Origin: an uncultured Actinomycetota bacterium | Lineage (GTDB): Bacteria > Actinomycetota > Actinomycetes > Propionibacteriales > Nocardioidaceae | Reading direction: 5' to 3' | NCBI GenBank assembly: GCA_963780355.1 | Contig: CAWABT010000004.1 | Coordinates: 17,724-81,723 of the forward strand | DNA: 64,000 nucleotides | Shown here: one piece after another, positions 2,846-15,791 of the stretch | How the letters are laid out: each line of letters begins with the position of its first letter | Position numbering within the stretch: the first letter of the stretch is position 1 | Position numbers and translations under genes: made by a program | Notes under the pieces: generated by a model | Databases searched by the model: none | Told to the model about the DNA's origin: nothing | What the model saw: the letters and a program-made list of their open reading frames with translations, nothing else

Positions 2846-4128
2846 GCACCACGACCACCCCGCCGGACACGCCGTCCAACCCGGCCGAGGCGATCGCCGC
2901 GGCCCAGTCGCAGTCGGCCGGCCTGGGCGACGTCGCCCGCGCCTACCTCGTCAAGCTGCGCGGCGGCGACGTCGGCTCGCTGCCGGCGATCCTCGGCCTC
3001 ATCACGCTCATCATCGTCTTCTCGAGCCTGCGCCCCCAGAGCTTCACCAACTCGTTCAACTTCGCGAACCTCATCAACCAGTCCGCCGGCGTCGTGGTGC
3101 TGGCGATGGGCCTGGTGTTCGTGCTGCTCCTCGGCGAGATCGACCTCTCGGCAGGCTTCGCGGGCGGGACGTCGGCAGCAGTGCTCGGCTTCGCCTTGAC
3201 GAAGCAGGGGGTGTCACTCCCCTCCAGCATCATCCTCGGTCTCACGGTGGGCGCCGCGATCGGCCTGGCCATCGGCCTGCTCGTGGCCAAGCTCGGCATC
3301 CCGTCGTTCGTGGTCACGCTCGCGGCGTTCCTCGCCCTCAAGGGCGTGCTGCTGAAGGTGGTCGGCGAGGGCAAGACGATCAGCTACCGCAACGACAAGA
3401 TCCTCGCCCTCAACAACGACACGCTCCCGGTGTGGCTCGGCTGGACCCTCGCCGTCGTCGGCATCCTGGCCTTCGCCGGCTTCACCCTGGTCCGCAACCT
3501 GCGCCGCCGGCACCGCGGCCTGGTGGCCGAGCCGATGCTGCTGTGGGTCATCAAGACAGTCGTGCTGTCGGCGATCGTGCTCGCCGCCGTCGGCTACCTC
3601 TCGGTCGAGCGCAGCCGCAACCCGGCGTTCTCGTCCCTCAAGGGCGTCCCGCTCGTGCTGCTCGTGATCGTGATCCTCGCGCTCGTGCTGACGATCCTGC
3701 TCTCCGCGACCTCGTGGGGCCGCCACGTGTACGCCGTCGGCGGCAACACCGAGGCGGCCCGCCGGGCCGGCATCAACGTCACCTGGATCAAGCTCAGCTG
3801 CTTCATCATCTGCAGCATGACGGCGGCCCTGGCCGGCGTGCTCATCGCCAGCCGCGACAACGGCGTGAACGGCGACACCGGCGGCGAGCAGACGCTGCTG
3901 TTCGCGGTCGGCGCGGCGGTGATCGGCGGCACCAGCCTCTTCGGCGGCAAGGGCCGGGTCACCGACGCGATCATCGGCGGGCTCGTGATCGCCGTCATCG
4001 ACAACGGCATGGGCCTGCTGCAGCAGCCGCCGAGCAACGTGCAGATCGTCACCGGCCTGGTGCTGCTCCTGGCGGCCAGCGTCGACGCGATCAGCCGGCG
4101 CCGGAGCAAAGCCCAGGGATTGGGCTAG
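2842..4128 (+). CDS. Sugar ABC transporter permease (XylH-like)
   Basis: GTG start overlapping the ATPase stop (GTGA); motifs LLLGEIDLSAG, IPSFVVTLA, YAVGGNTEAARRAGI, IGGTSLFGGKG. Confidence 0.92.
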   Translation: MSTTTTPPDTPSNPAEAIAAAQSQSAGLGDVARAYLVKLRGGDVGSLPAILGLITLIIVFSSLRPQSFTNSFNFANLINQSAGVVVLAMGLVFVLLLGEIDLSAGFAGGTSAAVLGFALTKQGVSLPSSIILGLTVGAAIGLAIGLLVAKLGIPSFVVTLAAFLALKGVLLKVVGEGKTISYRNDKILALNNDTLPVWLGWTLAVVGILAFAGFTLVRNLRRRHRGLVAEPMLLWVIKTVVLSAIVLAAVGYLSVERSRNPAFSSLKGVPLVLLVIVILALVLTILLSATSWGRHVYAVGGNTEAARRAGINVTWIKLSCFIICSMTAALAGVLIASRDNGVNGDTGGEQTLLFAVGAAVIGGTSLFGGKGRVTDAIIGGLVIAVIDNGMGLLQQPPSNVQIVTGLVLLLAASVDAISRRRSKAQGLG

Positions 4129-4295
4129 CTAGTGGCTCGTCGTGACTAATTCACGGGCGTGGCGACGCCCAGGCACGCACCTCGCGGCGTTGCCGGCGCT
4201 CGCTGGACGGTCAAGTACGGCGTCGCTTCGGCGCCTTGCGATGCACGCACCTGGACGCCGCCACATCCCGTCCTTTAGCCACGACAAGCCACTAG
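4129..4295. mobile_element. MITE-like palindromic element with 21-bp imperfect terminal inverted repeats ending in CTAG
   Basis: CTAGTGGCTCGTCGTGACTAA ... TTAGCCACGACAAGCCACTAG plus nested internal inverted repeats; no coding capacity; an extra CTAG at 4125-4128. Confidence 0.7.
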
Positions 4296-4302
4296 GCCCG
4301 CC

Positions 4303-5502
4303 ATGACCACCCGCCCGGCCGGCGTCGCCTCGGACGGGCTCCGGCGCACCAACCTGCGGGCGATCCTGCAGGCGGTGCACCACCGGGGTCCCACCACGCG
4401 CGCCGTCCTCACCCGGCAGCTGGGCCTCAACCGCAGCACCATCGGCGACCTGGTGGCCGAGCTCCAGGCGCTCGGCCTGGTGAGCGAGGGCACCGGCCCG
4501 GTCGGCGGTCCCGGCCGGCCCTCCCACGTGGTGTCGCCCTGCCCGGAGAACGCCGTGGTCGCCGTCGACGTCGGCGTCGACCGGATCTCGGCCGCGGTGG
4601 TCGGCCTCGGCGGTGGTGTGAGCGAGCGCCGCACCCGGCCGCACCACCGCGGCGAGCACGACGTGGCGCACGTCGTCGAGTCGGCGGCGCAGATGGTCGA
4701 GGACCTCGTGGCCGCCACCCCCGGCGCACGCCACCTCGGCGTCGGCGTGGCGGTGCCCGGTGCGGTACGGGCGGCCGACGGCCTGGTGCAGTTCGCGCCC
4801 AACCTGGGCTGGACCCGGGCGCCGTTCACCGCGCTGCTCGCCGAGCGGCTCGCGCTCCCGGTCAACGCCGGCAACGACGCCGACCTCGGCGTGCTGGCCG
4901 AGCACGTGCGCGGCGCCGCCGTCGGGTTCACCCACCCCGCCTACCTCAACGGCTCGGTCGGCATCGGTGGCGGCTTCCTCGTCGACGGCGTCCCGCTGCG
5001 CGGTGCCCACGGCTACGCGGGCGAGGTCGGCCACCTCCAGGTCGACACCACCGGTCCGCAATGCCGGTGCGGGGCCGTCGGCTGCTGGGAGAGCCGGGCG
5101 GGGGAGAACCGGCTGCTGCAGCTCGCCGGCCGGTTGCCCGGCGGCGGCCCGGAGGCCGTCGCCGAGGTGATGGCGGCGGCCCGCAACGGCGAGGCGCGCG
5201 CCACCGATGCGTTCGCCGAGGTGGCCGGCTGGGTCGGCGTCGGGCTGCGCGCGGTGATCAACGTGTTCAACCCCGACGTCATCGTGCTCGGCGGCAGCCT
5301 CGCCCAGATCTGGGACGTCGCCGCGGACGCCGTCGACGCCGCCGTCCAGCAGGGCGCCCCGCTCGCGCCGCGCGACGAGTTGACCATCACCGCGGCCCGG
5401 CTCGGGCTCGACAGCCCGCTGGTCGGCGCCGCGGAGCTCGCCTTCGCGCGGCTCCTCGACGACCCGCAGGGCGTGGCCGGAGCGCTCACCGGTTCCGCCT
5501 GA
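4303..5502 (+). CDS. ROK-family transcriptional regulator (probable xylose repressor)
   Basis: N-terminal HTH (TTRAVLTRQLGLNRSTIGDLV); ROK motifs NDADLG, AGEVGH, CRCGAVGCWE. Confidence 0.92.
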   Translation: MTTRPAGVASDGLRRTNLRAILQAVHHRGPTTRAVLTRQLGLNRSTIGDLVAELQALGLVSEGTGPVGGPGRPSHVVSPCPENAVVAVDVGVDRISAAVVGLGGGVSERRTRPHHRGEHDVAHVVESAAQMVEDLVAATPGARHLGVGVAVPGAVRAADGLVQFAPNLGWTRAPFTALLAERLALPVNAGNDADLGVLAEHVRGAAVGFTHPAYLNGSVGIGGGFLVDGVPLRGAHGYAGEVGHLQVDTTGPQCRCGAVGCWESRAGENRLLQLAGRLPGGGPEAVAEVMAAARNGEARATDAFAEVAGWVGVGLRAVINVFNPDVIVLGGSLAQIWDVAADAVDAAVQQGAPLAPRDELTITAARLGLDSPLVGAAELAFARLLDDPQGVAGALTGSA

Positions 5503-5545
5503 GCGCCGCGGCTGCTCTACCCTCCTCGGCGTGCTGCAGACGAGC

Positions 5546-6190
5546 GTGCTCGACCGATTCAAGGGTTTCTGGCAGGGCGTGGTGCTGCGGCCCTTCATCC
5601 GGCTGTTCCTCCGGATGGGCATCGGGCCGGACGCCGTCACGCTGGTGGGCACCATCGGCGTGTGCGCCGGCGCGCTGATCTTCTTCCCGCGGGGGGAGCT
5701 GCTCATCGGCGTCCTGGTGATCACCGCCTTCGTGTTCAGCGACCTGATCGACGGTGCGATGGCGCGCGAGCTCGGCCGCGACTCCACGTTCGGAGCGTTC
5801 TGGGACTCCACCCTCGACCGGTTCGGCGACGGCGCCGTGTTCGCCGGCCTCGCGCTCTACTTCGCCCGCGACGGCGACAGCTTCCTCTACCTGTGCGTGG
5901 CGCTGTACTGCCTCGTCACCGGGTCGGTGACCTCCTACGCCCGCGCCAAGGCCGAGTCGCTCGGCATGGACGCCCGCGGCGGGATCGCCGAGCGCGCGGA
6001 CCGGCTGGTGCTGATCCTCGTGCTCACCGGCTTCTCCGACATCTTCGACACCCCCGAGCTGCTCTACGGCGCGCTGTGGGTGCTGGCCGCGGCCAGCACG
6101 GCCACCGTCGTCGTCCGCGTGCTCAAGGTCCGCCGTCAGGCACTCGCCCTCGACGCCGCCAAGTCGGCTCCGGACACCTCTCAGCCGTAG
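5546..6190 (+). CDS. pgsA: Phosphatidylinositol phosphate synthase (CDP-alcohol phosphatidyltransferase)
   Basis: Motif SDLIDGAMAR...FGAFWDSTLDRFGD and GGIAERADRL; start GTG 5546 preferred (5531 possible). Confidence 0.88.
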   Translation: MLDRFKGFWQGVVLRPFIRLFLRMGIGPDAVTLVGTIGVCAGALIFFPRGELLIGVLVITAFVFSDLIDGAMARELGRDSTFGAFWDSTLDRFGDGAVFAGLALYFARDGDSFLYLCVALYCLVTGSVTSYARAKAESLGMDARGGIAERADRLVLILVLTGFSDIFDTPELLYGALWVLAAASTATVVVRVLKVRRQALALDAAKSAPDTSQP

Positions 6191-6199
6191 GCTGGGGAC

Positions 6200-7108
6200 A
6201 TGGCTGACAGCACCACCCCGAACCACCCCGAGACCGGCACCACCCGCGTGAAGCGGGGCATGGCCGAGATGCTGAAGGGCGGCGTCATCATGGACGTCGT
6301 CACGCCCGAGCAGGCGAAGATCGCGGAGGAGGCGGGCGCCGTCGCGGTCATGGCGCTCGAGCGGGTGCCGGCCGACATCCGGGCCCAGGGCGGCGTCAGC
6401 CGGATGAGCGACCCGGACATGATCGACGAGATCATCGCCACCGTCTCGATCCCGGTGATGGCCAAGGCGCGCATCGGCCACTTCGCCGAGGCGCAGGTGC
6501 TGCAGAGCCTCGGCGTCGACTACGTCGACGAGTCCGAGGTGCTCACCCCGGCCGACTACGCCCACCACATCGACAAGTGGCGGTTCACCGTGCCGTTCGT
6601 GTGCGGCGCCACCAACCTGGGCGAGGCGCTCCGCCGCATCTCCGAGGGCGCGGCGATGATCCGCTCCAAGGGCGAGGCCGGCACCGGCGACGTCTCGAAC
6701 GCCGTCACCCACATGCGCACGATCCGGCAGGAGATCCGCCGGCTCGGCAGCCTCCCGGAGGACGAGCTGTTCGTCGCCGCCAAGGAGCTCCAGGCGCCCC
6801 ACGACCTCGTCGCCGAGGTGGCGCGCACCGGCAGCCTGCCCGTCGTCCTGTTCACCGCGGGCGGCATCGCCACCCCGGCCGACGCCGCGATGATGATGCA
6901 GCTCGGCGCCGAGGGCGTGTTCGTGGGCTCGGGCATCTTCAAGTCCGGCAACCCGGCGCAGCGCGCCGAGGCGATCGTCAAGGCCACCACGTTCCACGAC
7001 GACCCGGCGATGGTCGCCAAGGTCTCGCGCGGCCTCGGCGAGGCCATGGTCGGCATCAACGTCGAGGACCTCGCGCAGCCGCACCGGCTCGCCGAGCGCG
7101 GCTGGTAG
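6200..7108 (+). CDS. pdxS: Pyridoxal 5'-phosphate synthase lyase subunit
   Basis: [33 protein letters not shown]; TAGGCT -10 six nt before the ATG (leaderless-like). Confidence 0.98.
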
Positions 7109-7109
7109 G

Positions 7110-8600
7110 TCAGCCGCCGCCGGCGGCGCAGCGGCGGCCGACGGCCTCGACCCGCGCGCTGAGCTCGGGCGACGCCTCGTCGGACTGCAGCTCTTCGACG
7201 CTGAGCTCCTCGACGACGCCCAACGCGTAGCAGCGGGCGAGGTCGTCGGGGATGCCCTGGGTGAGGACCTCGTCGAGCAGCTGGGTGCGCGAGAGCGGGA
7301 ACGAGATCACCGCCTCGTCGGCCGGGTCCTTCCTGCCGACGCCTTGGGGGTCGCAGGAGTCGAAGGTGAGGGCCTGGCGGCCGCGGTCGACGGTGGCGTC
7401 CGACGGGCCGGCCGCCGCCCACGCGTCGAGCGCGTCCGCCAGCTCGCGGGTGTCGCGCGCCGTGTCGCCGCGGTAGGCGACCCGCATGCAGCTGCGGCCC
7501 CGCTCCTCGTAACCGACGTAGGCGTCGCCGCCCCAGCCGTCGCTGGCCCGGATCGAGGTCTTGGGGTCGAGTCGCTGCGCCAGCATGAAGTAGAGCGCGA
7601 ACGCGCCGAACGTCCCGGAGTCGAACTCCTTCTCGCGGCGGCCGAGCGCCGGGTTCTCGACGTCGAGCACGTCGGTGCGGTTCGGCTCGCGCAGGAGGAG
7701 CCACGGGTCGAGCACCGCCTCCTCCGAGACCGGCGGCGCGCGCAGCAGGTCGTCGACGGCGTCGTCCCCGTCGAGCGTGACGGCGAGCTTCAGCATCTGC
7801 TCGCCCAGCACGTAGGGCGCAGCGCTGAAGCCCACCAGGGCGCGGGGGAGCCGCGCGACCCGCCGCTCGGTGCGGCGCTGGTCCTGCCGCTCGGCCCGGG
7901 TGCTGCGACCACCGCCGTGCGTCTTCTCGTACCGCGTGGCGACGCGCGAGGCGTCCCCTTCGGTGACCACCTGCAGCATCTGGGAAGCGGTGCCGTCCTC
8001 GTCCTTCGAGAGGTCCTCGAACCGGCTGCCGATGTCGAAGTGCTGGTCCTGGAGCGCGTGGGTGAGCTCGTGCACCAGGGTCTTGCGCACCTCCGTCGTG
8101 AGTCGCGTCCCGCGCACCCGGATCGTCTCGTCGTCGAACGCGTAGAAGCCCACGGTGCCGGCCTGCGCCAGCGTGCGCGTCACCGCACCCAGGTCGACGC
8201 CGTCGGCGAGCAGCCCGACCGCCCGGAACAGCCCGGCGTACTGCTCGAGCTCCTTCTCGTCCTCGGCGGTGCCCTCGTTCTTTCCGCTGACGAGCGCCTT
8301 CTCGAACGCGGCCGGCTTCAGGTAGCGCACGTAGACCGGGTGCTCGAAGGTGAGGCCGCGCTCCTTCTCGACGAAGGCCACGAGCGGCGCGACCCGGCGG
8401 TCCCACTGGTCCGGGTGCGGCGGTCCCTCGGCGGCAGGCTCGTCCCGGGCGATGTAGGTGCGGTACCCGTACCAGCCGCCAGCGGCCACGAGGGCGAGCG
8501 CGACGACGACCACCAGCACCCGCGGGGCGGTGCCCGAGAGCAGCCGGCGACGCCGGCTCGGGGCGTCGAGGGAGAGGTCCGGGGGCCAGCCGCGTCGCAC
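7110..8600 (-). CDS. Membrane-anchored putative zincin-like metallopeptidase (HExxH), uncharacterised
   Basis: N-terminal TM segment, LVHELTHALQDQHF, downstream EGDA, later GWGGD motif; start GTG 8600 follows TATCGT -10 by 6 nt. Confidence 0.7.
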   Translation of the reverse strand: MRRGWPPDLSLDAPSRRRRLLSGTAPRVLVVVVALALVAAGGWYGYRTYIARDEPAAEGPPHPDQWDRRVAPLVAFVEKERGLTFEHPVYVRYLKPAAFEKALVSGKNEGTAEDEKELEQYAGLFRAVGLLADGVDLGAVTRTLAQAGTVGFYAFDDETIRVRGTRLTTEVRKTLVHELTHALQDQHFDIGSRFEDLSKDEDGTASQMLQVVTEGDASRVATRYEKTHGGGRSTRAERQDQRRTERRVARLPRALVGFSAAPYVLGEQMLKLAVTLDGDDAVDDLLRAPPVSEEAVLDPWLLLREPNRTDVLDVENPALGRREKEFDSGTFGAFALYFMLAQRLDPKTSIRASDGWGGDAYVGYEERGRSCMRVAYRGDTARDTRELADALDAWAAAGPSDATVDRGRQALTFDSCDPQGVGRKDPADEAVISFPLSRTQLLDEVLTQGIPDDLARCYALGVVEELSVEELQSDEASPELSARVEAVGRRCAAGGG

Positions 8601-8802
8601 CAGCGCACGATAAACGCCGGTCCAGCGCACCGGCGGCGTCCGCAGTAGCACCTAGGGGTGAATCCGCTACGTCACTCCCGTCACATGCGTACCTTGAGTA
8701 GTCCTTGAGGATTCCCTGTGGCTTCGGCGCGGGTGACCTTGACCTTGGGGTCGTGGAATACGTGCAACGCATTCCTCCCCACGGATCCCCTAAGGACGCG
8801 AC

Positions 8803-9303
8803 ATGACCACCACTCGCACCACCACCTCCCCGACCAGGCGCAAGCGCAAGGTCGCCATCGTCGCCGCCGCGCTCGTCGGTGCCGCCTCCGTCGGCGCCTT
8901 CGCCTTCTGGAGCAGCACCGGCGCCGGCACCGGCTCGGCCGCCACCGGCGACGTCGCCGCGATCACGGTCGTCCAGACCAGCACCGTCTCCGGTCTGGCT
9001 CCCGGCCTCGCCGCCGAGACCCTGTCGGGCAACTTCGACAACCCGAACTCCGGCCCGGTCTACATCACGTCGGTGACCGCGAGCATCGACAGCGTCACCA
9101 AGGCCGGCGGCGCCCCCGCGGGCACCTGCGACGCCACCGACTACACGCTCTCCAACGCCGTCATGGCCGTGGGCGCCGAGGTCCCCTCGGGCACCGCGCA
9201 GGGCGCCTGGACCGGTGCCACCATCGCCTTCAACAACAAGGCCGGCGTGAACCAGGACGCCTGCAAGGGCGCCACCGTCAACCTGGCGTACTCCGCCAGC
9301 TGA
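8803..9303 (+). CDS. Secreted pilin-like subunit 1 with SipW/TasA-type signal peptide (probable major subunit)
   Basis: RRKRK + hydrophobic core + AFA|FWSS; LAPG..NPNSGPVY, two Cys, C-terminal NQDACKGATVNLAY; AAGGA RBS. Confidence 0.75.
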   Translation: MTTTRTTTSPTRRKRKVAIVAAALVGAASVGAFAFWSSTGAGTGSAATGDVAAITVVQTSTVSGLAPGLAAETLSGNFDNPNSGPVYITSVTASIDSVTKAGGAPAGTCDATDYTLSNAVMAVGAEVPSGTAQGAWTGATIAFNNKAGVNQDACKGATVNLAYSAS

Positions 9304-9310
9304 GCTGGCT

Positions 9311-9345
9311 GCGGAGGCCGCCTGCTGGGGGGCGGCGGCCTCCGC
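9311..9345 (+). terminator. 12-bp GC-rich stem-loop directly after subunit 1
   Basis: GCGGAGGCCGCC ... GGCGGCCTCCGC, no U-tract. Confidence 0.6.
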
Positions 9346-9364
9346 GCCGATTGTGTCGACTGAC

Positions 9365-9883
9365 ATGGACAGCGCAGCACCAGCCACGGCGCGGACCCGG
9401 GCCAAGGCGCTCAGCGGACTCCTGCTCCTGGTCGTCCTGCTGGTCGGGACGCTCCGGGCCGACGCAGGCACCGCCGGGCTCCCGTCCGAGTCGAGTCGCA
9501 GCGGCCACGCGGTCGCCAAGGTCGGCATCCGCGGCATCGCGACCGGACGGCTCACGCCCGGCCGGATGACCACGGTGCGGATCCAGCTGCGGAACAGGAC
9601 CACGTACCCGGTCTACGTCAGCAGGATCCGGATCCGGATCACCAAGGTCGTCGCACCGCGAGCCACGGCCCTCCGGCCGTGCACCACGAAGGACTTCCGG
9701 ATCCGCCAGATCAAGTCGAACGTCCGGATCCGCGTCGCACCCCGACGCGGGGCCTGGGTTCCGAAGGCCAAGCGGCCGGCGATCGGCATCGTCAACCGGC
9801 GGGTCAACCAGGACGGCTGCAAGGGCGCCGTCGTCCGGCTGAAGTACACCGCCTACCGGGTCCAGCGAGCTCCGCGCCGCTGA
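9365..9883 (+). CDS. Secreted pilin-like paralog 2, extremely cationic
   Basis: Signal/TM segment; LTPG..NRTTYPVYV, two Cys, NQDGCKGAVVRLKY; start ATG 9365 or GTG 9353. Confidence 0.7.
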   Translation: MDSAAPATARTRAKALSGLLLLVVLLVGTLRADAGTAGLPSESSRSGHAVAKVGIRGIATGRLTPGRMTTVRIQLRNRTTYPVYVSRIRIRITKVVAPRATALRPCTTKDFRIRQIKSNVRIRVAPRRGAWVPKAKRPAIGIVNRRVNQDGCKGAVVRLKYTAYRVQRAPRR

Positions 9884-9930
9884 GCCGGAACCACGAAACC
9901 ACGAGAAGCACGAGAGAGGAGGTGAGCACG

Positions 9931-10431
9931 ATGGCAGCACGACTGCGTCGGCTCACCTCCGCTCGCGTTCTCAAGCCCCTCGCGGGTCTGGCGGTCGTGA
10001 TCCTCGTCGTCGTCGGCGGCCCGGCCGCCGGCTGGTGGACCGCCGCCGGCGCCGGCACCGCGACCGGCAGCACCGGGACCACCGTGGACCTCACGCTCGA
10101 CCCCGGCACCGCGTCGGCGCAGCTCTACCCCGGCGGTGCCGGCGACGTCGTGCTCACGATCACCAACCCCAACGGCTCGCCCGTGCGGGTCGGCAGCCTG
10201 GACCTCGCCAGCGCCCAGGGCACCGGCGGCTATTCCGTCGATGGCGCCCATTCCGCGTGCGGCGTCGGTAGCCTGACCTACACCCCCCAGACCAACGGCG
10301 GCGCCGGCTGGACCGTGCCGGCGAACGGGTCGACGAACGTCACGCTCACCGGAGCGCTGGCGATGTCCGTCTCCGCCGCCAACGCCTGCCAGGGCGCCAC
10401 CTTCACCGTCTACCTGCAGGCTGCCCCGTGA
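9931..10431 (+). CDS. Secreted pilin-like paralog 3 with SipW-type signal peptide
   Basis: GGAGG RBS; AAG|WWTAAGAGTATG; LYPG..NPNGSPVRV, two Cys, AANACQGATFTVYL. Confidence 0.75.
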   Translation: MAARLRRLTSARVLKPLAGLAVVILVVVGGPAAGWWTAAGAGTATGSTGTTVDLTLDPGTASAQLYPGGAGDVVLTITNPNGSPVRVGSLDLASAQGTGGYSVDGAHSACGVGSLTYTPQTNGGAGWTVPANGSTNVTLTGALAMSVSAANACQGATFTVYLQAAP

Positions 10432-13400
10432 ACCGTCGTCGCACCTTCGTCACCGCCGTCGTCGCGCTCGCGCTGACGGCGTCGGTGGCGTACGGCTTCT
10501 GGAGCGGCGGCTCGACGCCGGGTGGCGGCGGCAGCTCGAAGGCGCAGACCGTCCCGCAGGGCGGCGTGCCGACCCCGTCGGTCGCCGGCCGCGCGGTCAC
10601 CCTGACCTGGAGCGCCGTCAACCTGCCCGGTGGGCAGCCGGTGGCCGGCTACCAGGTCGGCCGCTACGACGAGGCCAGCTCGGCCCCGCAGACCGTGCTC
10701 TCGGGCTGCACCGGCACCGTCGCCGGGCTGACCTGCACCGAGAGCAACGTGCCCGACGGCCACTGGCGCTACGGGATCATCCCGCGGATCGGCACCAACT
10801 GGCAGGGACCCGAGAGCGCCCTCAGCACCACCGCCCTCGTCGACCAGACCGCGCCGGTCAACGACCTCAGCCTCTCGTCGGTGTCGGGTGGCGCCGCGCT
10901 CGTCGGCACGACGGCGTACTACCGGGGGAGCGCGTCCGGCGGCTTCCGGATCACCAACGCGCTCACCGACGCCACCTCCGGCCCCGCCCGCAGCACGACA
11001 TCCGGGCTCTCCGGACCGGCCGGCGGCCTCAGTCACTCCGGCCTCGCCGTCACCACGCCGGCCGGCGGCCCGTACGTGTCCAACCCGTTCACCTGGACGA
11101 GCGGCACGACGGCCTCCCCGACGTTCACCGTCACCGGTCGGGACGTCGCCGGCAACACCGCCCCCGTCACGCTGACCCTGACCAACGACTCGGCCGCACC
11201 CAGCGCCGGCTCCATCAGCTACCAGGACGGCGCCCTGCCCGGCCGGTCGGTGAGCGTCACCTTCGCCGCCGGCACCGACGCCGGCTCGGGCGTGGCGGTC
11301 CGGCGGCTGCAGCGGTCCTCAGCGCCGGTCTCCGGCGGGTCCTGCGGCTCGTTCACCGCGTACGTCGACATCGCCACCGACCCGACGTCGCCCTACGTCG
11401 ACGCGAACCGCGGACGCGGCTGCTACCGCTACCGGCTCCTGGTCCGCGACCGGGTCGGCAACCAGACCACCGCCACCGGCACCAGCACCGCCCAGGTCGG
11501 CTACGCCGGCGCGGTCGCCGCCACCACCGGCACGAAGGGGGTCTGGCGGCTCGGCGAGTCCGGCCCGCTCACCTCCGACTCCTTCACCGGCACCGTGGGC
11601 GCGACGCTCCAGTCCCGCACGGGCGAGGTCGGCGCCGGCTGGACCAACGCCGGGTTCTCCGACTCGCAGCTCACCGGTGTCACCGGTCGCATCTTCAAGA
11701 GCGGCCTCCTCACCGCCGGCTCCCTCTACTACTCCTCGGCCACGCCGGGCAGTCCCGACTACTCGGTGAGCGCCGACGTCGTCGCCGTCACCCCCGTCGC
11801 GAACGACGCTGCCGGCGTCGTCGGCCGGCTCGCCACCGGCTCCACCACGTTCTACGCCGCGCGGTACGACCGGGCTACCGGCGCCTGGGTGCTGAGCAAG
11901 GTCGTCAACGGCACCTCGACCTCGCTCGGCTCGTGGGCGCAGGCCTTCACCATCGGCACCCAGCGGGTCACGCTGGCCATGGACGGCACCTCGATCCGGC
12001 TCCTCGTGAACGGCGTCGAGCGGGTCGCGGCCACCGACAGCAGCATCACGGCGGCCGGACGTGGCGGCACGCAGCTCGGGTACGTCGCCACCGGCTCGCC
12101 GACCACCATCACTACGCTCACCACCGGCCTCCAGCTCGACAACGTGCTGGTCACGCCGGCCGTCGTCGACGGTGCCGGCACCAACCACGGCGCCTACGGC
12201 CGCGTTCCGACCCTCGGGGTCGCCGGCGCCCTCACCGGTGACGCCGACACCGCCGCAACCTTCGACGGCGTCGACGACTACGCGAGCGTGCGGCGCGCGG
12301 TCTCCGACGACCTGACCGTCGAGTTCTGGTTCAGGTCGACCGGCGGCACGGGCACCGGCTCGCAGTGGTACCAGGCCATGCCGCTGGTCGACTCCGACGC
12401 CGCGGGCGTGGCGAACGACTTCGGCGTCGGGCTCCGCTCGGACGGCAAGGTCGTCGCCGGCGTCGGCAACGGCGCCAGCGAGACCTCGGTCGTCTCCACC
12501 GCCACCGGCCTCAACAACGGCGCGTGGCACCACGTCGCCGCCACCCGGGTGCGCTCCACCGGCCTGCTCACCGTCTACGTGGACGGCGCCGCGTCGGGCA
12601 GCGTCACCGCCGGCACCACCTCCCTCACCGGCTCCCCGATGGTGTTCTTCGGCGCCTCCGCCGACCTCACCCGGTTCCTGACCGGCAGCCTCGACGAGGT
12701 CGCCGTCTACGACCAGGCGCTGGGCGGCGCCGTCGTCGCCGACCACTACGCGCTCGGCTCGGCGCCGGTCGCCGACCTGGCCGGACCGACGGGCGGCTCG
12801 GTGGACGCGACCGGCCTCGTCGGCACCGGCTCGCGGTACTCGACCAGCACCACACTCAACTTGGCGCTCTCCGCCGGCTCCGACCCCAGCGGGCTCGACA
12901 GCGCGACCGCCCGGCTCGACCGCGCCACGGCGCCGCTCACCGGCGGTAGCTGCGGCACCTACGGCGAAGCCGAGACCATCGCCACCGCTCCCACCTCACC
13001 GCGCACCGACGTGGTCGACGACGGCCTCTGCTACCGCTACGAGTACGTCGTGAGCGACACCCAGGGCAACGGCACCACCTACACCAGCGGCGACATCAAG
13101 GTCGACACCACCGCGCCCGGTGCGGTCGCCCTGACCCCCACCAGCGGGTCCGGGTCGTACGTCTCCGGCAGCCAGGTCTACTACCGTCCCGCCGCCGCCA
13201 CCCGCACGTTCACCGTCACGGCCAACGTCACGGAGAACGAGTCCGGCATCGCGAGCTACGGCTTCCCGACGATCGGCGCCGGGTGGAGCGCGACCGGGAC
13301 CGGCAACTCCCGCCAGTACACCTGGCCCACGACCTCCACCGTCTCGGGCGCGCAGACCGTCACCGCGACCAGCAACGCCGGCGTCGCGGCCTCGCCCAGC

Positions 13401-14390
13401 GGAAGCTTCACCGTCACCCCCGACAGCACCGCGCCGACCACGAGCGTCACCTACACCGGCGGCATCGCGAACGCCCCGGCAGTGTCGGTCACGACGGCGG
13501 CGTCCGACGCCGGCTCCGGCCTCGCCTCCGTGACCCTCGAGAGGGGTGCGGCCACCCTGACCGGCGCCAGCACCTGCGGTGCCTTCACGTGGAGCCTGCT
13601 CGCCACCAACCCCGCCGCGTCGTACGCCGACACGCTGCCGAGCACCGGGTGCTACCAGTACCGACTGACCGCCACCGACCAGGTGGGCAACACGTTCACC
13701 ACGGCGACCGGCGCGACCGTCATCAACGCCGGGCTCTACGAGAACCGGGTCACCAACACCACCGGCCTGGTGAACTACTGGCGCCTCGGTGAGGCGTCCG
13801 GCACCGCAGCCGCGGACGCCACCGGCGGAGCGAACGGCACCTACACCTCGTCGACGCTGAACCAGGCCGGTGCGCTGAACGGCGACACGAGCACCTCGGT
13901 CACCTTCAACGGCACGAGCAGCTTCGTGAGCGCACCCCGCCAGATCGGTAACAGCTTCTCGATCGAGCTCTGGTTCAAGTCCACCCAGAACGTCACCGCA
14001 GGCAACAAGTGGCGGGTCGGCGCCGCGCTGTTCGACTCCGACGGCAACGGCAACGGCGCCGACTTCGGGTTCTCGCTCGACGGGAGCCAGATCTCCGCGG
14101 GCGTGGCCAACATCAACCCGGTCACCGGCGGCACCGGCCTCAACAACGGCCAGTGGCACCAGGTGGTGTTCACCCGCAACCAGACCAGCGGCGCCCTGGT
14201 CCTGTACGTGGACGGGGCCCAGGTGGCCACGGGCACCGGACCGACGACGGCCCTGACGGCGTCCGCGGTCGTCAACATCGGCCGGTCCACCCAGGCCGCG
14301 CGCTACTTCAACGGCACGATCGACGAGGTGTCGACCTACAGCACGGTGCTGCCGGCAGCCACGGTGCTCGACCACTTCAACAACCGCTGA
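10428..14390 (+). CDS. Large secreted adhesin/lectin: SipW-type signal, Ig/FN3-like repeats, two LamG (ConA-like) domains
   Basis: AYG|FWSG N-terminus; repeats with CG..CY(R/Q)Y..D..GN; LamG motifs WRLGE, EFWF(R/K)ST, LNNG(A/Q)WHHV, G(S/T)(L/I)DEV; GTGA overlap with paralog 3. Confidence 0.85.
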
Positions 14391-14412
14391 TCCGCCGCCC
14401 TACGCTTTCGGG

Positions 14413-15004
14413 GTGGCCCTGAGGATCGGAGTGCTCGCCCTGCAGGGCGACGTGCGCGAGCACGTCGCCGCGCTCGGCCGGCTCGGGGTCAGCGCGACGA
14501 CGGTGCGTCGCCCGGCCGAGCTCGACGCCGTCGACGCACTCGTCCTGCCGGGCGGTGAGTCCACGACGATGGCCAAGCTCGCCCGCACCTTCGACCTGCT
14601 CGAGCCGCTGCGGCTGCGGGTCAAGGAGGGGATGCCGGCCTTCGGCACCTGCGCCGGGATGATCCTGCTCGCCGACCGGGTGCTCGACGGCGTGCCCGGG
14701 CCAGGAGACGATCGGCGGGCTCGACGTCACCGTCCGCCGCAACGCCTTCGGCCGCCAGGTCGACTCGTTCGAGGGGCCGCTCCGGATCGCCGGCATCGCC
14801 GACCCGGTGCCCGGGGTGTTCATCCGCGCGCCCTGGGTGGAGTCGACCGGACCCGGCGTCGAGGTGCTCGGCCGGGTGGAGGAGGGTGAGGCGGCCGGTA
14901 GGATCGTGGCGGTCCGGCAGGGCCCGCTGATGGCGACGTCGTTCCACCCCGAGATGGGTCACGACCCCCGCGTGCACGCCCTGTTCGTCGACCTGATCCG
15001 CTGA
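14413..15004 (+). CDS. pdxT: PLP synthase glutaminase subunit; +1 frameshift at 14698-14700 (GGG)
   Basis: [31 protein letters not shown] in one frame; [26 protein letters not shown] in the +1 frame; removing one G joins them. Confidence 0.93.
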
Positions 15005-15023
15005 GTCGTAGAGAAGAGAAGGC

Positions 15024-15791
15024 ATGTCCGGGCACAGCAAGTGGGCGACCACGAAGCACAAGAAGGCCGTCATCGACGCCAAGCGCGGCAAGATGTTCGC
15101 CAAGCTCATCAAGAACATCGAGGTCGCCGCGCGCACCGGTGGCGGCGACCCGTCCGGCAACCCGACGCTCTACGACGCCATCCAGAAGGCCAAGAAGAGC
15201 TCGGTCCCGAACGACAACATCGACCGCGCGGTCAAGCGCGGCTCCGGTGACGACACCGGCGGCGCCGACTACCAGACGATCATGTACGAGGGCTACGGCC
15301 CGGCCGGCGTCGCGCTGCTCATCGAGTGCCTCACCGACAACAAGAACCGCGCGGCCATGGAGGTCCGCATGGCGATGACCCGCAACGGCGGCTCGCTCGC
15401 CGACCCCGGCTCGGTCTCCTTCCTCTTCAACCGCAAGGGCGTCGTGCTCGTGCCCGTCGCGCAGGAGGGCCGCACGGTCACCGAGGACGACATCCTCGAG
15501 GCCACCCTCGAGGCCGGCGCCGACGACGTGCAGAGCCTCGGCGACTCCTTCGAGGTCGTCTCGGAGGCCACCGACCTGGTCGCCGTCCGCACCTCGCTCC
15601 AGGCCGCCGGCATCGACTACGACTCCGCCGAGGCCTCGTTCGTGCCCGACAACAAGGTCGAGCTCGACAAGGACGCCGCCGGCAAGCTGTTCCGCCTCGT
15701 CGACGCCCTCGAGGACCTCGACGACGTGCAGGACATCTACGCCAACTACGACGTCAGCGACGCCGTCATGGAGCAGCTCGCCGACGCCTGA
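15024..15791 (+). CDS. yebC: YebC/PmpR family protein
   Basis: [42 protein letters not shown]. Confidence 0.97.

Follow-up and report, generated by a model that had tools for sequence, protein, structure and literature searches.

Current descriptions of actinobacterial pili recognize sortase-built and type IV/Tad structures. Among the systems closest to the locus studied here, the TasA-TapA-SipW system of Bacillus subtilis (PF12389, 8AUR) polymerizes independently of sortase. The archaeal Tafi pili (TafA-G of Haloarcula hispanica and TafE of Natrinema) have the same list of parts as this locus and are supported by experiments (PMC12337348). For AbpX-like loci of Bacillota and Chloroflexota, AlphaFold3 models predict major, minor and tip subunits and an LPXTG or S-layer homology (SLH) anchor that are joined by strand complementation (bioRxiv 10.64898/2026.01.04.697558). 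The locus in question is a cassette of four genes at positions 8803-14390 of a 64,000-nucleotide stretch (the window; contig CAWABT010000004.1, positions 17,724 to 81,723 of the forward strand) from an uncultured bacterium of the Nocardioidaceae, phylum Actinomycetota (GCA_963780355.1). The products are given the working names P1 to P4. The interpretation that we lean towards, with modest confidence, is that the four genes encode a self-contained, cell-anchored adhesive fiber of a strand-donation, TasA-superfamily-like type.

The four open reading frames (ORFs) all lie on the + strand, as do the features within them given here, and have a high guanine-cytosine (GC) content at the third codon position; the four co-oriented secreted proteins of the first-pass annotation of this DNA were thereby verified. 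P1 (8803-9303, 166 amino acids (aa)) is the predicted major, or shaft, subunit and consists of a signal peptide (residues 1-34, 8803-8904), a conserved N-terminal segment F35-W36...G40-x-G42-x-G44 (8905-8952) and a β-sandwich domain (residues 51-166). In P2 (9353-9883, 176 aa), the predicted base or anchor subunit, a hydrophobic helix near the N-terminus (about residues 19-34, 9407-9454) precedes a pilin-like domain, and the C-terminal tail, RVQRAPRR, is basic. P3 (9931-10431, 166 aa), the predicted minor or adaptor subunit, comprises a signal peptide (9931-10032), an N-terminal W35-W36 pair with a Gly/Ala/Thr segment (10033-10080) and a pilin-like domain; its start is the ATG at 9931, which follows a Shine-Dalgarno-like GAGGAAG sequence, and the listed ORF begins further upstream. 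P4 (10428-14390, 1320 aa), the predicted tip adhesin, starts with a GTG codon and overlaps the stop codon of P3. Its signal peptide (10428-10496) is followed by F24-W25 with a Gly-rich segment (10497-10547), a conserved first domain up to about residue 140, Ig-like modules with Cys pairs, and two LamG/ConA-like lectin domains (12267-12731 and 13917-14366; Laminin_G_3, 3e-39 and 9e-22).

In layout, the cassette is closest to the archaeal Tafi loci and the predicted AbpX-like loci. Features in common with Tafi include a small β-sandwich major pilin with a minor pilin paralog, a tip whose joining part is conserved and whose outer domain varies, and an anchor with a single membrane helix ahead of a pilin-like domain, a feature in which P2 matches the proposed anchor TafF (PMC12337348). 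N-terminal strand donation without chaperone or usher would be a further one, as predicted for the cassette. This likeness is one of part lists, and a sequence match to the Tafi family does not form part of it. However, Tafi loci encode the signal peptidase TafD and the DUF5305 partner TafG, neither of which is present in the cassette, and most Tafi pilins use twin-arginine translocation (Tat) signals, whereas the cassette is bacterial and its proteins have Sec-type signals and a Gly-rich N-terminal segment. AbpX resembles the cassette proteins in the aromatic residue at donor-strand position 2 and in the two cysteines of the pilin domain (bioRxiv 10.64898/2026.01.04.697558). In contrast to the acidic, calcium-dependent AbpX, which is accompanied by a signal peptidase with ten transmembrane (TM) segments, the cassette lacks both the acidic position 4 and the peptidase and occurs mainly in Actinomycetota. 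Compared with both systems, its domain is smaller and its taxonomic range different. A literature search found no described actinobacterial fiber of this type. The label "undescribed" in the first-pass annotation therefore holds for this family but not for the concept, which has been published for Tafi (PMC12337348) and predicted for AbpX-like loci (bioRxiv 10.64898/2026.01.04.697558).

To describe the distribution of the cassette, homologs were collected and gene neighborhoods were compared in 80 related loci, which were fetched from 429 cassette loci found in species-representative genomes of Actinomycetota and Chloroflexota. There were 1685 homologs of P1, every one annotated as hypothetical, and 771 of P3; for P1, 2965 clusters were obtained at 50% identity, the best 150 of which were all P1-like. 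The hosts belong to Nocardioidaceae and other Propionibacteriales, to many Micrococcales (including Arthrobacter, Paeniglutamicibacter, Cryobacterium, Agrococcus, Microbacterium and Pseudolysinimonas), and to Geodermatophilaceae, Solirubrobacterales, Chloroflexia and Limnocylindrales, with Nocardioides holding the nearest relatives of the window cassette. Cultured isolates with the cassette include Nocardioides lentus JCM 14046, Arthrobacter terrae Z1-20, A. bambusae DS999, Paeniglutamicibacter antarcticus JCM 18952 and Pseudolysinimonas yzui CGMCC 1.16548. The order P1-(P2)-P3-P4 recurred across the fetched loci, in 23 of which all four genes were found by single-sequence search, and P3 was always positioned between P2 and P4. 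Given this many homologs and the conserved gene order, the recurrence of the observed gene set is far beyond chance. When all likely genes from -8 to +14 kb around the cassette were clustered, only the cassette genes were conserved, with a response regulator in 13 loci as the exception; genes for a peptidase, a chaperone, an usher, a sortase or an ATPase were not conserved alongside the cassette in these neighborhoods.

P1, P2 and P3 are paralogous small β-sandwich proteins. Their alignment has the invariant positions L65, P67, G68, N80, P85, V86, C154, G156 and A157, and profile-profile comparison by hhalign linked P2 to P1 (99%, E 3e-18) and P3 to P1 (99%, E 2.5e-17). The P3-P1 match extends over the full length, and that between P2 and P1 covers the domain only (P2 residues 68-175). 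Each small protein contains exactly two cysteines, at residues 109 and 154 in P1, 110 and 156 in P2, and 110 and 153 in P3. The three paralogs reported in the first-pass annotation were thus confirmed by alignment invariants and hhalign alike, as was most of the C-terminal motif given for them: C-(K/Q)-G-A-x-x-x-(L/V)-x-(Y/L) is present in all three, but the preceding N-x-C is exact for P3 only and reads D-x-C in P1 and P2. Within the alignment of P1 homologs, W36, G40, G42, G44, C109 and C154 were invariant. The AlphaFold2 model of P1 had a predicted local distance difference test (pLDDT) score above 90 for residues 50-166 and below 50 for residues 28-44, and the model of P3 had a pLDDT of 80.

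The poorly modeled part of P1 coincides with the junction behind the signal peptide, which reads AFA|FW in P1, AAG|WW in P3 and AYG|FW in P4 of the window. In all three, a normal n-h signal peptide comes first, and the consensus among orthologs is A-(Y/F)-A|Y-W-T-A-G-G-S-G-T-G-S-A-x-T-G-T for P1, A-x-A|Y-W-x-a-x-G-s-G-t-G for P3, and A-W-A|Y-W-s-A-g-S-x-x-G-G-x-G-A-A-A-A for P4. Alanine was found at -1 and at -3 in 78 of 80 P1 orthologs, Tyr at +1 in 75/80 and Trp at +2 in 79/80; position +2 was Trp in 40 of 42 P4 orthologs and Trp or Phe in 42 of 44 P3 orthologs. The aromatic pair that the earlier annotation had noticed in subunits 1 and 3 and the lectin is hence a conserved trait of the orthologs. 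In P2, by contrast, it occurred in 1 of 36 orthologs, and the motif was absent from the other 35. The strict Ala rule at -3 and -1 suggests a cut exactly before the aromatic pair. Searches for a class III signal or a type IV pilin leader of the G|F-T-L-x-E type in the cassette proteins were negative, the leaders being classical n-h-c signals with A-x-A, and neighborhood clustering revealed no prepilin peptidase or ATPase near the cassette. The junction segment is the best conserved part of P1 and yet disordered in the monomer model (residues 28-44), where no other stretch of the mature protein is left unplaced. Because it is invariant but unstructured in the monomer, it looks like an intermolecular strand or plug. 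The P1 and P3 segments are nearly identical and the P4 segment differs, which would fit insertion of P1 and P3 into acceptors of the P1 or P2 type and of P4 into P3.

Conservation of the junction might also be explained if the proteins were co-regulated and exported with a common signal for a dedicated processing step, be it the action of a specific peptidase, the attachment of glycans to the Ser/Thr/Gly segment or retention in the wall, and did not bind each other through it. The signal peptide and junction are the only sequence that P4 has in common with the small proteins, and the same region carries most of the similarity to TasA. Aromatic residues at positions P2 and P2′ of the cleavage site are reported to make the TasA site a poor substrate of E. 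coli LepB (PMC10269814), and a comparable hindrance here would call for special processing. Such a step would nevertheless leave unexplained why the motif-less paralog P2 carries anchor signals, why the gene order is fixed and why proteins whose distal domains are unrelated have retained the motif. As no processing enzyme is conserved near the cassette either, this explanation appears quite improbable.

The assignment of P2 as the base relies on its anchoring signals. In 10 related loci, the C-terminus of the protein encoded at the P2 position consists of LPxTG or LAxTG, then a hydrophobic stretch, then a tail rich in Arg (for example, ...ELPDTGAVIGGLLLGTGVLALAGWILFMAARRRRAK in Arthrobacter terrae), and these proteins are homologous to the window-type P2 (98%, 1e-13). 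In the remaining P2 proteins, the median length of the apolar run at the N-terminus is 19 aa, which is that of a membrane helix. These sorting signals and TM-length N-termini support P2 as the predicted base or anchor of the structure, in agreement with the base role proposed for it before. Anchoring in the subset with sorting signals evidently uses a housekeeping sortase. None of P1 to P4 in the window bears a C-terminal LPxTG sorting signal, and no sortase-like motif was found in the window; an internal LPSTG at residue 1070 of P4 is not followed by a membrane segment and is not a sorting signal. The cassette thus resembles sortase pili of the SpaA type in having a predicted shaft, tip adhesin and base, the last of which is LPxTG-attached in a subset of relatives, but its shaft and tip proteins lack sorting signals and pilin motifs, and no locus contained a pilus-specific sortase. 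These differences argue that the subunits are not joined by sortase. Accordingly, the term "sortase-independent" used in the first-pass annotation can be kept for polymerization, which bears no sortase signature, but does not extend to anchoring in all relatives, although its statement that the window has no LPxTG signal, sortase or class III signal was correct.

For P4, hhalign matches to P1 and P3 (90-93%) were confined to about residues 10-37, in the signal peptide and the N-terminal motif. The first 140 residues were conserved in 44 loci, and the remainder varied between lineages, with distal modules that included LamG domains, Big_13/Big_3 repeats, fn3 domains, cadherin-like domains and a β-propeller with He_PIG. 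Since only the signal and N-terminal motif and the first domain are conserved and the distal modules are swapped, P4 is supported as the putative tip adhesin, as had been proposed for the lectin. The P4 protein of the window also contains three copies of a Cys-pair module (G-G-S-C-G...C-Y-R-Y...D-x-V-G-N; cysteines at residues 306/332, 842/868 and 1050/1075), each upstream of a LamG or LamG-like region and without a match to a Pfam model.

P1 was the most conserved of the four proteins, with a mean pairwise identity of 58%, compared with 47% for P3, 47% for the P4 N-terminus and 31% for P2. A GC-rich hairpin at 9311-9345 (+), recognized by sequence and folding, begins fewer than 10 bases past the P1 stop codon and has a perfect 12-bp stem (GCGGAGGCCGCC/GGCGGCCTCCGC) and an 11-nucleotide loop. 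The 78-nucleotide stretch from the P1 stop codon had a folding energy of -45.1 kcal/mol (z -3.6), and z values below -2 were obtained at this position in 65% of 85 orthologous loci versus 2% of coding controls. The hairpin is probably a partial terminator or an mRNA-stabilizing stem. A stem-loop after the gene is an arrangement typical of major pilin genes. The highest conservation, together with the hairpin after the stop codon, supports the shaft role suggested earlier for P1 as the predicted major subunit. P3, a full-length paralog with the motif that always adjoins P4, is a candidate adaptor. Soil metatranscriptome contigs of relatives cover P1 and read across the P1-P2 junction, which shows transcription of relatives in soil with P1-P2 read-through, albeit with possible DNA carry-over; these contigs were too fragmentary, and GC-rich chance matches too many, for relative expression levels.

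The evidence for parts, anchor and tip would fit equally well a short, non-polymeric surface stalk, in which P2 as the anchor, P1, P3 and P4 are present at about 1:1:1:1 and a single large adhesin is held off the wall. Hetero-contacts alone could account for the conservation of the nearly identical N-terminal segments of P1 and P3. What separates a stalk from a fiber is the status of P1: the hairpin located exactly after its gene in 65% of loci and its identity of 58%, against 31-47% for the others, predict a homopolymeric major subunit, and in some loci P1 alone is duplicated. A stalk is therefore regarded as unlikely.

With the fiber interpretation, the parts can be combined as follows. All four proteins would be exported by Sec, and a signal peptidase would cut P1, P3 and P4 between A-x-A and Y/F-W. 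The cut would free an N-terminal segment, (Y/F)W(S/T)xxGxGxG, of about 12-16 residues, which may enter the β-sandwich of the next subunit as an extra strand, or as an aromatic plug and strand. Having a strand but no pilin domain, P4 would cap one end only and display there its variable binding modules, which in the window are two LamG lectin domains. P3 would join P4 to the shaft, P1 would polymerize head to tail, and P2, with an acceptor domain but no strand, would end the fiber at the cell, where it may be held by a membrane helix at its N-terminus that stays uncleaved or, in certain lineages, by attachment to the wall through LPxTG and sortase. The hairpin after P1 would raise the ratio of P1 to the minor subunits. 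The topology of tip, adaptor, shaft and base has independent support from the comparison of sequences among loci, and the parts of the model that we infer are where the signal peptide is cut, the insertion of the strand, the order of the subunits, the length of the polymer and the peptidase that acts. Chaperone-usher pili (Fim/Pap) resemble this arrangement in their ordered subunits, with one terminal subunit lacking the donor strand and the other lacking the acceptor, in the stem-loop after the major subunit gene and in the lectin tip. The polarity, however, would be reversed, as the adhesin of the cassette carries the putative strand and the anchor only the acceptor; moreover, the cassette has no periplasmic chaperone or usher and its hosts, which belong to monoderm lineages, have no outer membrane.

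The relation to TasA was assessed with family models, profile comparisons and structure searches. P1 scored 12.8 bits (E 0.1) against PF12389, below the cut-off of 22.5 bits. Specific, though sub-threshold, matches to this model were obtained for 26 of 44 P1 homologs (best E 1e-5) and 1 of 40 P3 homologs, and the TasA model NF046066 was matched by 4 of 44 P1 homologs (best 2.6e-5), also below its cut-off of 450 bits. A TasA-family alignment was then built from homologs of a bona fide PF12389 protein encoded in a Chloroflexia locus (L038). Against this alignment, hhalign gave 68% (P 4.7e-5) for P1, 65% (P 6e-5) for the P4 N-terminus and, as the best link, 90% (P 1.8e-6) for P3 residues 30-87, with a reversed-profile null of 0.17. 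The P1 alignment compared with the single TasA-like sequence of L038 was not significant and improved only with the family alignment. The aligned region spans about 55 N-terminal residues and takes in the last part of the signal peptide, the N-terminal segment and the sequence up to L-x-P-G...N-x-G. Once the signal peptide of P1 was removed, P was only 0.027, though both cysteines then aligned with the Cys pair of the TasA-like family. A Foldseek search with the P1 model placed the TasA fiber structure 8aur_A third (probability 0.93), a weak fold match. An NCBIfam scan of the four proteins, including TIGR04088, TIGR04089 and the TasA models, yielded no match at E<=1, so that the TIGR04088 check proposed in the first-pass annotation was negative, and TIGR04089 was matched by 1 of 44 P1 homologs (E 0.18). 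The P1 family is probably a very divergent branch of the TasA superfamily, with marginal homology, and not a demonstrated member. The TasA relation proposed previously is thus retained in a weakened form, backed by sub-threshold PF12389 matches and hhalign P values, with no family model above its cut-off.

Set beside TasA-TapA-SipW, the cassette proteins show this remote link over the signal-peptide junction, N-terminal strand and L-x-P-G-D...N-x-G, the aromatics at P2 and P2′ of the cleavage site, presumed sortase-independent polymerization, and 8AUR among the top folds for P1. They differ in the size of mature P1 (~130 aa versus ~230 aa for TasA), in model scores below threshold and in the lack of an acidic residue at donor-strand position 4; the cassette has no SipW and no TapA-like gene, but has a dedicated predicted tip adhesin and wall or membrane anchor. 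Alternatively, P1 fibers might be shed as a released biofilm-matrix scaffold like Bacillus TasA, with a SipW-type peptidase encoded elsewhere. The remote similarity to PF12389, the shared P2/P2′ aromatic pattern of the TasA cleavage site and a canonical TasA-SipW operon 3 kb from the cassette in one Chloroflexia genome would agree with a scaffold. LPxTG- or TM-anchored P2 and the modular adhesin P4 instead favor a cell-bound, tipped structure, and SipW was absent from 79 of 80 neighborhoods; a released matrix is accordingly judged very unlikely.

The signal peptidase was searched for in the window and related loci with a regular expression for S26 motifs and with a bona fide SipW as the phmmer query. 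Neither method detected an S26 or SipW-type peptidase in the window, in agreement with the first-pass annotation, which had reported no sipW-like peptidase there. The only enzyme found, in L038, matched TIGR02228 (1.4e-25) and lies beside a separate canonical TasA-like gene. Because 79 of 80 neighborhoods have no SipW, there is no genetic linkage between the cassette and SipW, and a dedicated peptidase for the cassette is unsupported. In L038, the TasA-like gene (PF12389), the SipW-type peptidase gene (TIGR02228) and a gene for a further secreted protein occupy 13243-15231, 3 kb downstream of the cassette, and a PilZ/YcgR-like gene (11975-12820) lies on the opposite strand between the cassette and the TasA operon.

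Several results weigh against a strand-donation fiber related to TasA. Regarding homology, every family-model match was far below its curated cut-off, and most of the TasA signal lies in the signal-peptide junction and the next 50 residues, as the P of 0.027 for P1 without its signal peptide shows. A profile of 44 P1 homologs retrieved nothing at E<=10 from PDB sequences, the Foldseek match between P1 and 8aur_A had only E 0.09 and a template modeling (TM) score of 0.41, and the P3 model retrieved only generic Ig-like sandwiches. Regarding the mechanism, the P1 domain already has about seven predicted strands, so that an open acceptor groove is hypothetical, and a donor strand so rich in Gly would be unusual. 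Loci of the TasA, AbpA, AbpX and Tafi types usually contain a signal peptidase gene of their own (bioRxiv 10.64898/2026.01.04.697558), and of the 80 loci only one (L038) had a SipW-type enzyme less than 10 kb away from the cassette. Strand insertion and polymerization, finally, are deduced from sequences and monomer models.

A more far-reaching form of the fiber interpretation, possible but doubtful at present, is that the cassette represents an unrecognized, widespread class of Gram-positive pili that needs no sortase, chaperone, usher, ATPase or peptidase in the locus and in which cleavage is itself the polymerization step. Each exported subunit, still tethered to the membrane by its signal peptide, would accept the freed strand of the fiber above and then be cut in turn. 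The fiber would grow from the base until an uncleavable or wall-linked P2 terminates and anchors it, and the unusual Gly-x-Gly-x-Gly strand, with a plug of Tyr and Trp, would represent a novel type of donor element.

If the fiber interpretation is true, hundreds of soil species, including Nocardioides, Arthrobacter, Microbacteriaceae, Solirubrobacterales and Chloroflexota, would possess a third, strand-donation type of pilus, which would change the view of their adhesion and aggregation. It would also bear on the question of whether TasA-type fibers need a dedicated signal peptidase. There is no Pfam or NCBIfam model for this family, with the result that ~3000 protein clusters carry the label hypothetical. 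With only four genes, the cassette is small, and it is present in cultured isolates, which makes the model directly testable, and the swappable tip modules could be a natural scaffold for the display of binding domains.

Variations of the cassette and its surroundings were also recorded among the related loci. One locus (L016) contained two complete tandem cassettes (3422-9739 and 9938-15567), each with its own large P4, and another (L026, 10004-11348) had P1 alone in two tandem copies. In the 13 loci with a conserved response regulator, the gene was of the LuxR/OmpR type and directly upstream of the cassette (for example, L079, 8849-9532), which hints at two-component control; no response regulator is adjacent to the cassette in the window. 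The sole Gram-negative label among the 80 loci belonged to a P1 homolog on a contig binned as Sphingomonas paucimobilis (L037, CALRVO020000014.1), which is probably mis-binned and not a real Gram-negative occurrence.

In the window, the cassette is flanked on one side by pdxS (6200-7108) and a divergent Hvo_1808-like gene and on the other by pdxT, yebC and ruvCAB, which places it inside a housekeeping region of this soil actinobacterium. A scan for sigma-70 promoters found no sites and is uninformative at 72% GC. The product of the divergent gene (7110-8651, - strand) is 513 aa long and has a membrane segment at its N-terminus as well as an HExxH motif. It matched the model of the archaeal "Hvo_1808 family surface protein" with E 3.7e-30, below the cut-off, and, weakly, the DUF6782 metallopeptidase. 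This Hvo_1808-like metallopeptidase was considered as a processing enzyme of the cassette and rejected, as it is not a conserved neighbor elsewhere. The genes pdxS and pdxT, normally adjacent, are split by the cassette (6200-7108 and 14413-15000). The same placement, pdxS followed by the cassette and pdxT-yebC, was seen in 5-6 related loci of the Nocardioidaceae type (L006, L009, L016, L017 and L031), and this recurrence suggests that insertion at the pdxS/pdxT site is old in this lineage. Other lineages carry the cassette at different places, at times beside transposases (L001 and L002).

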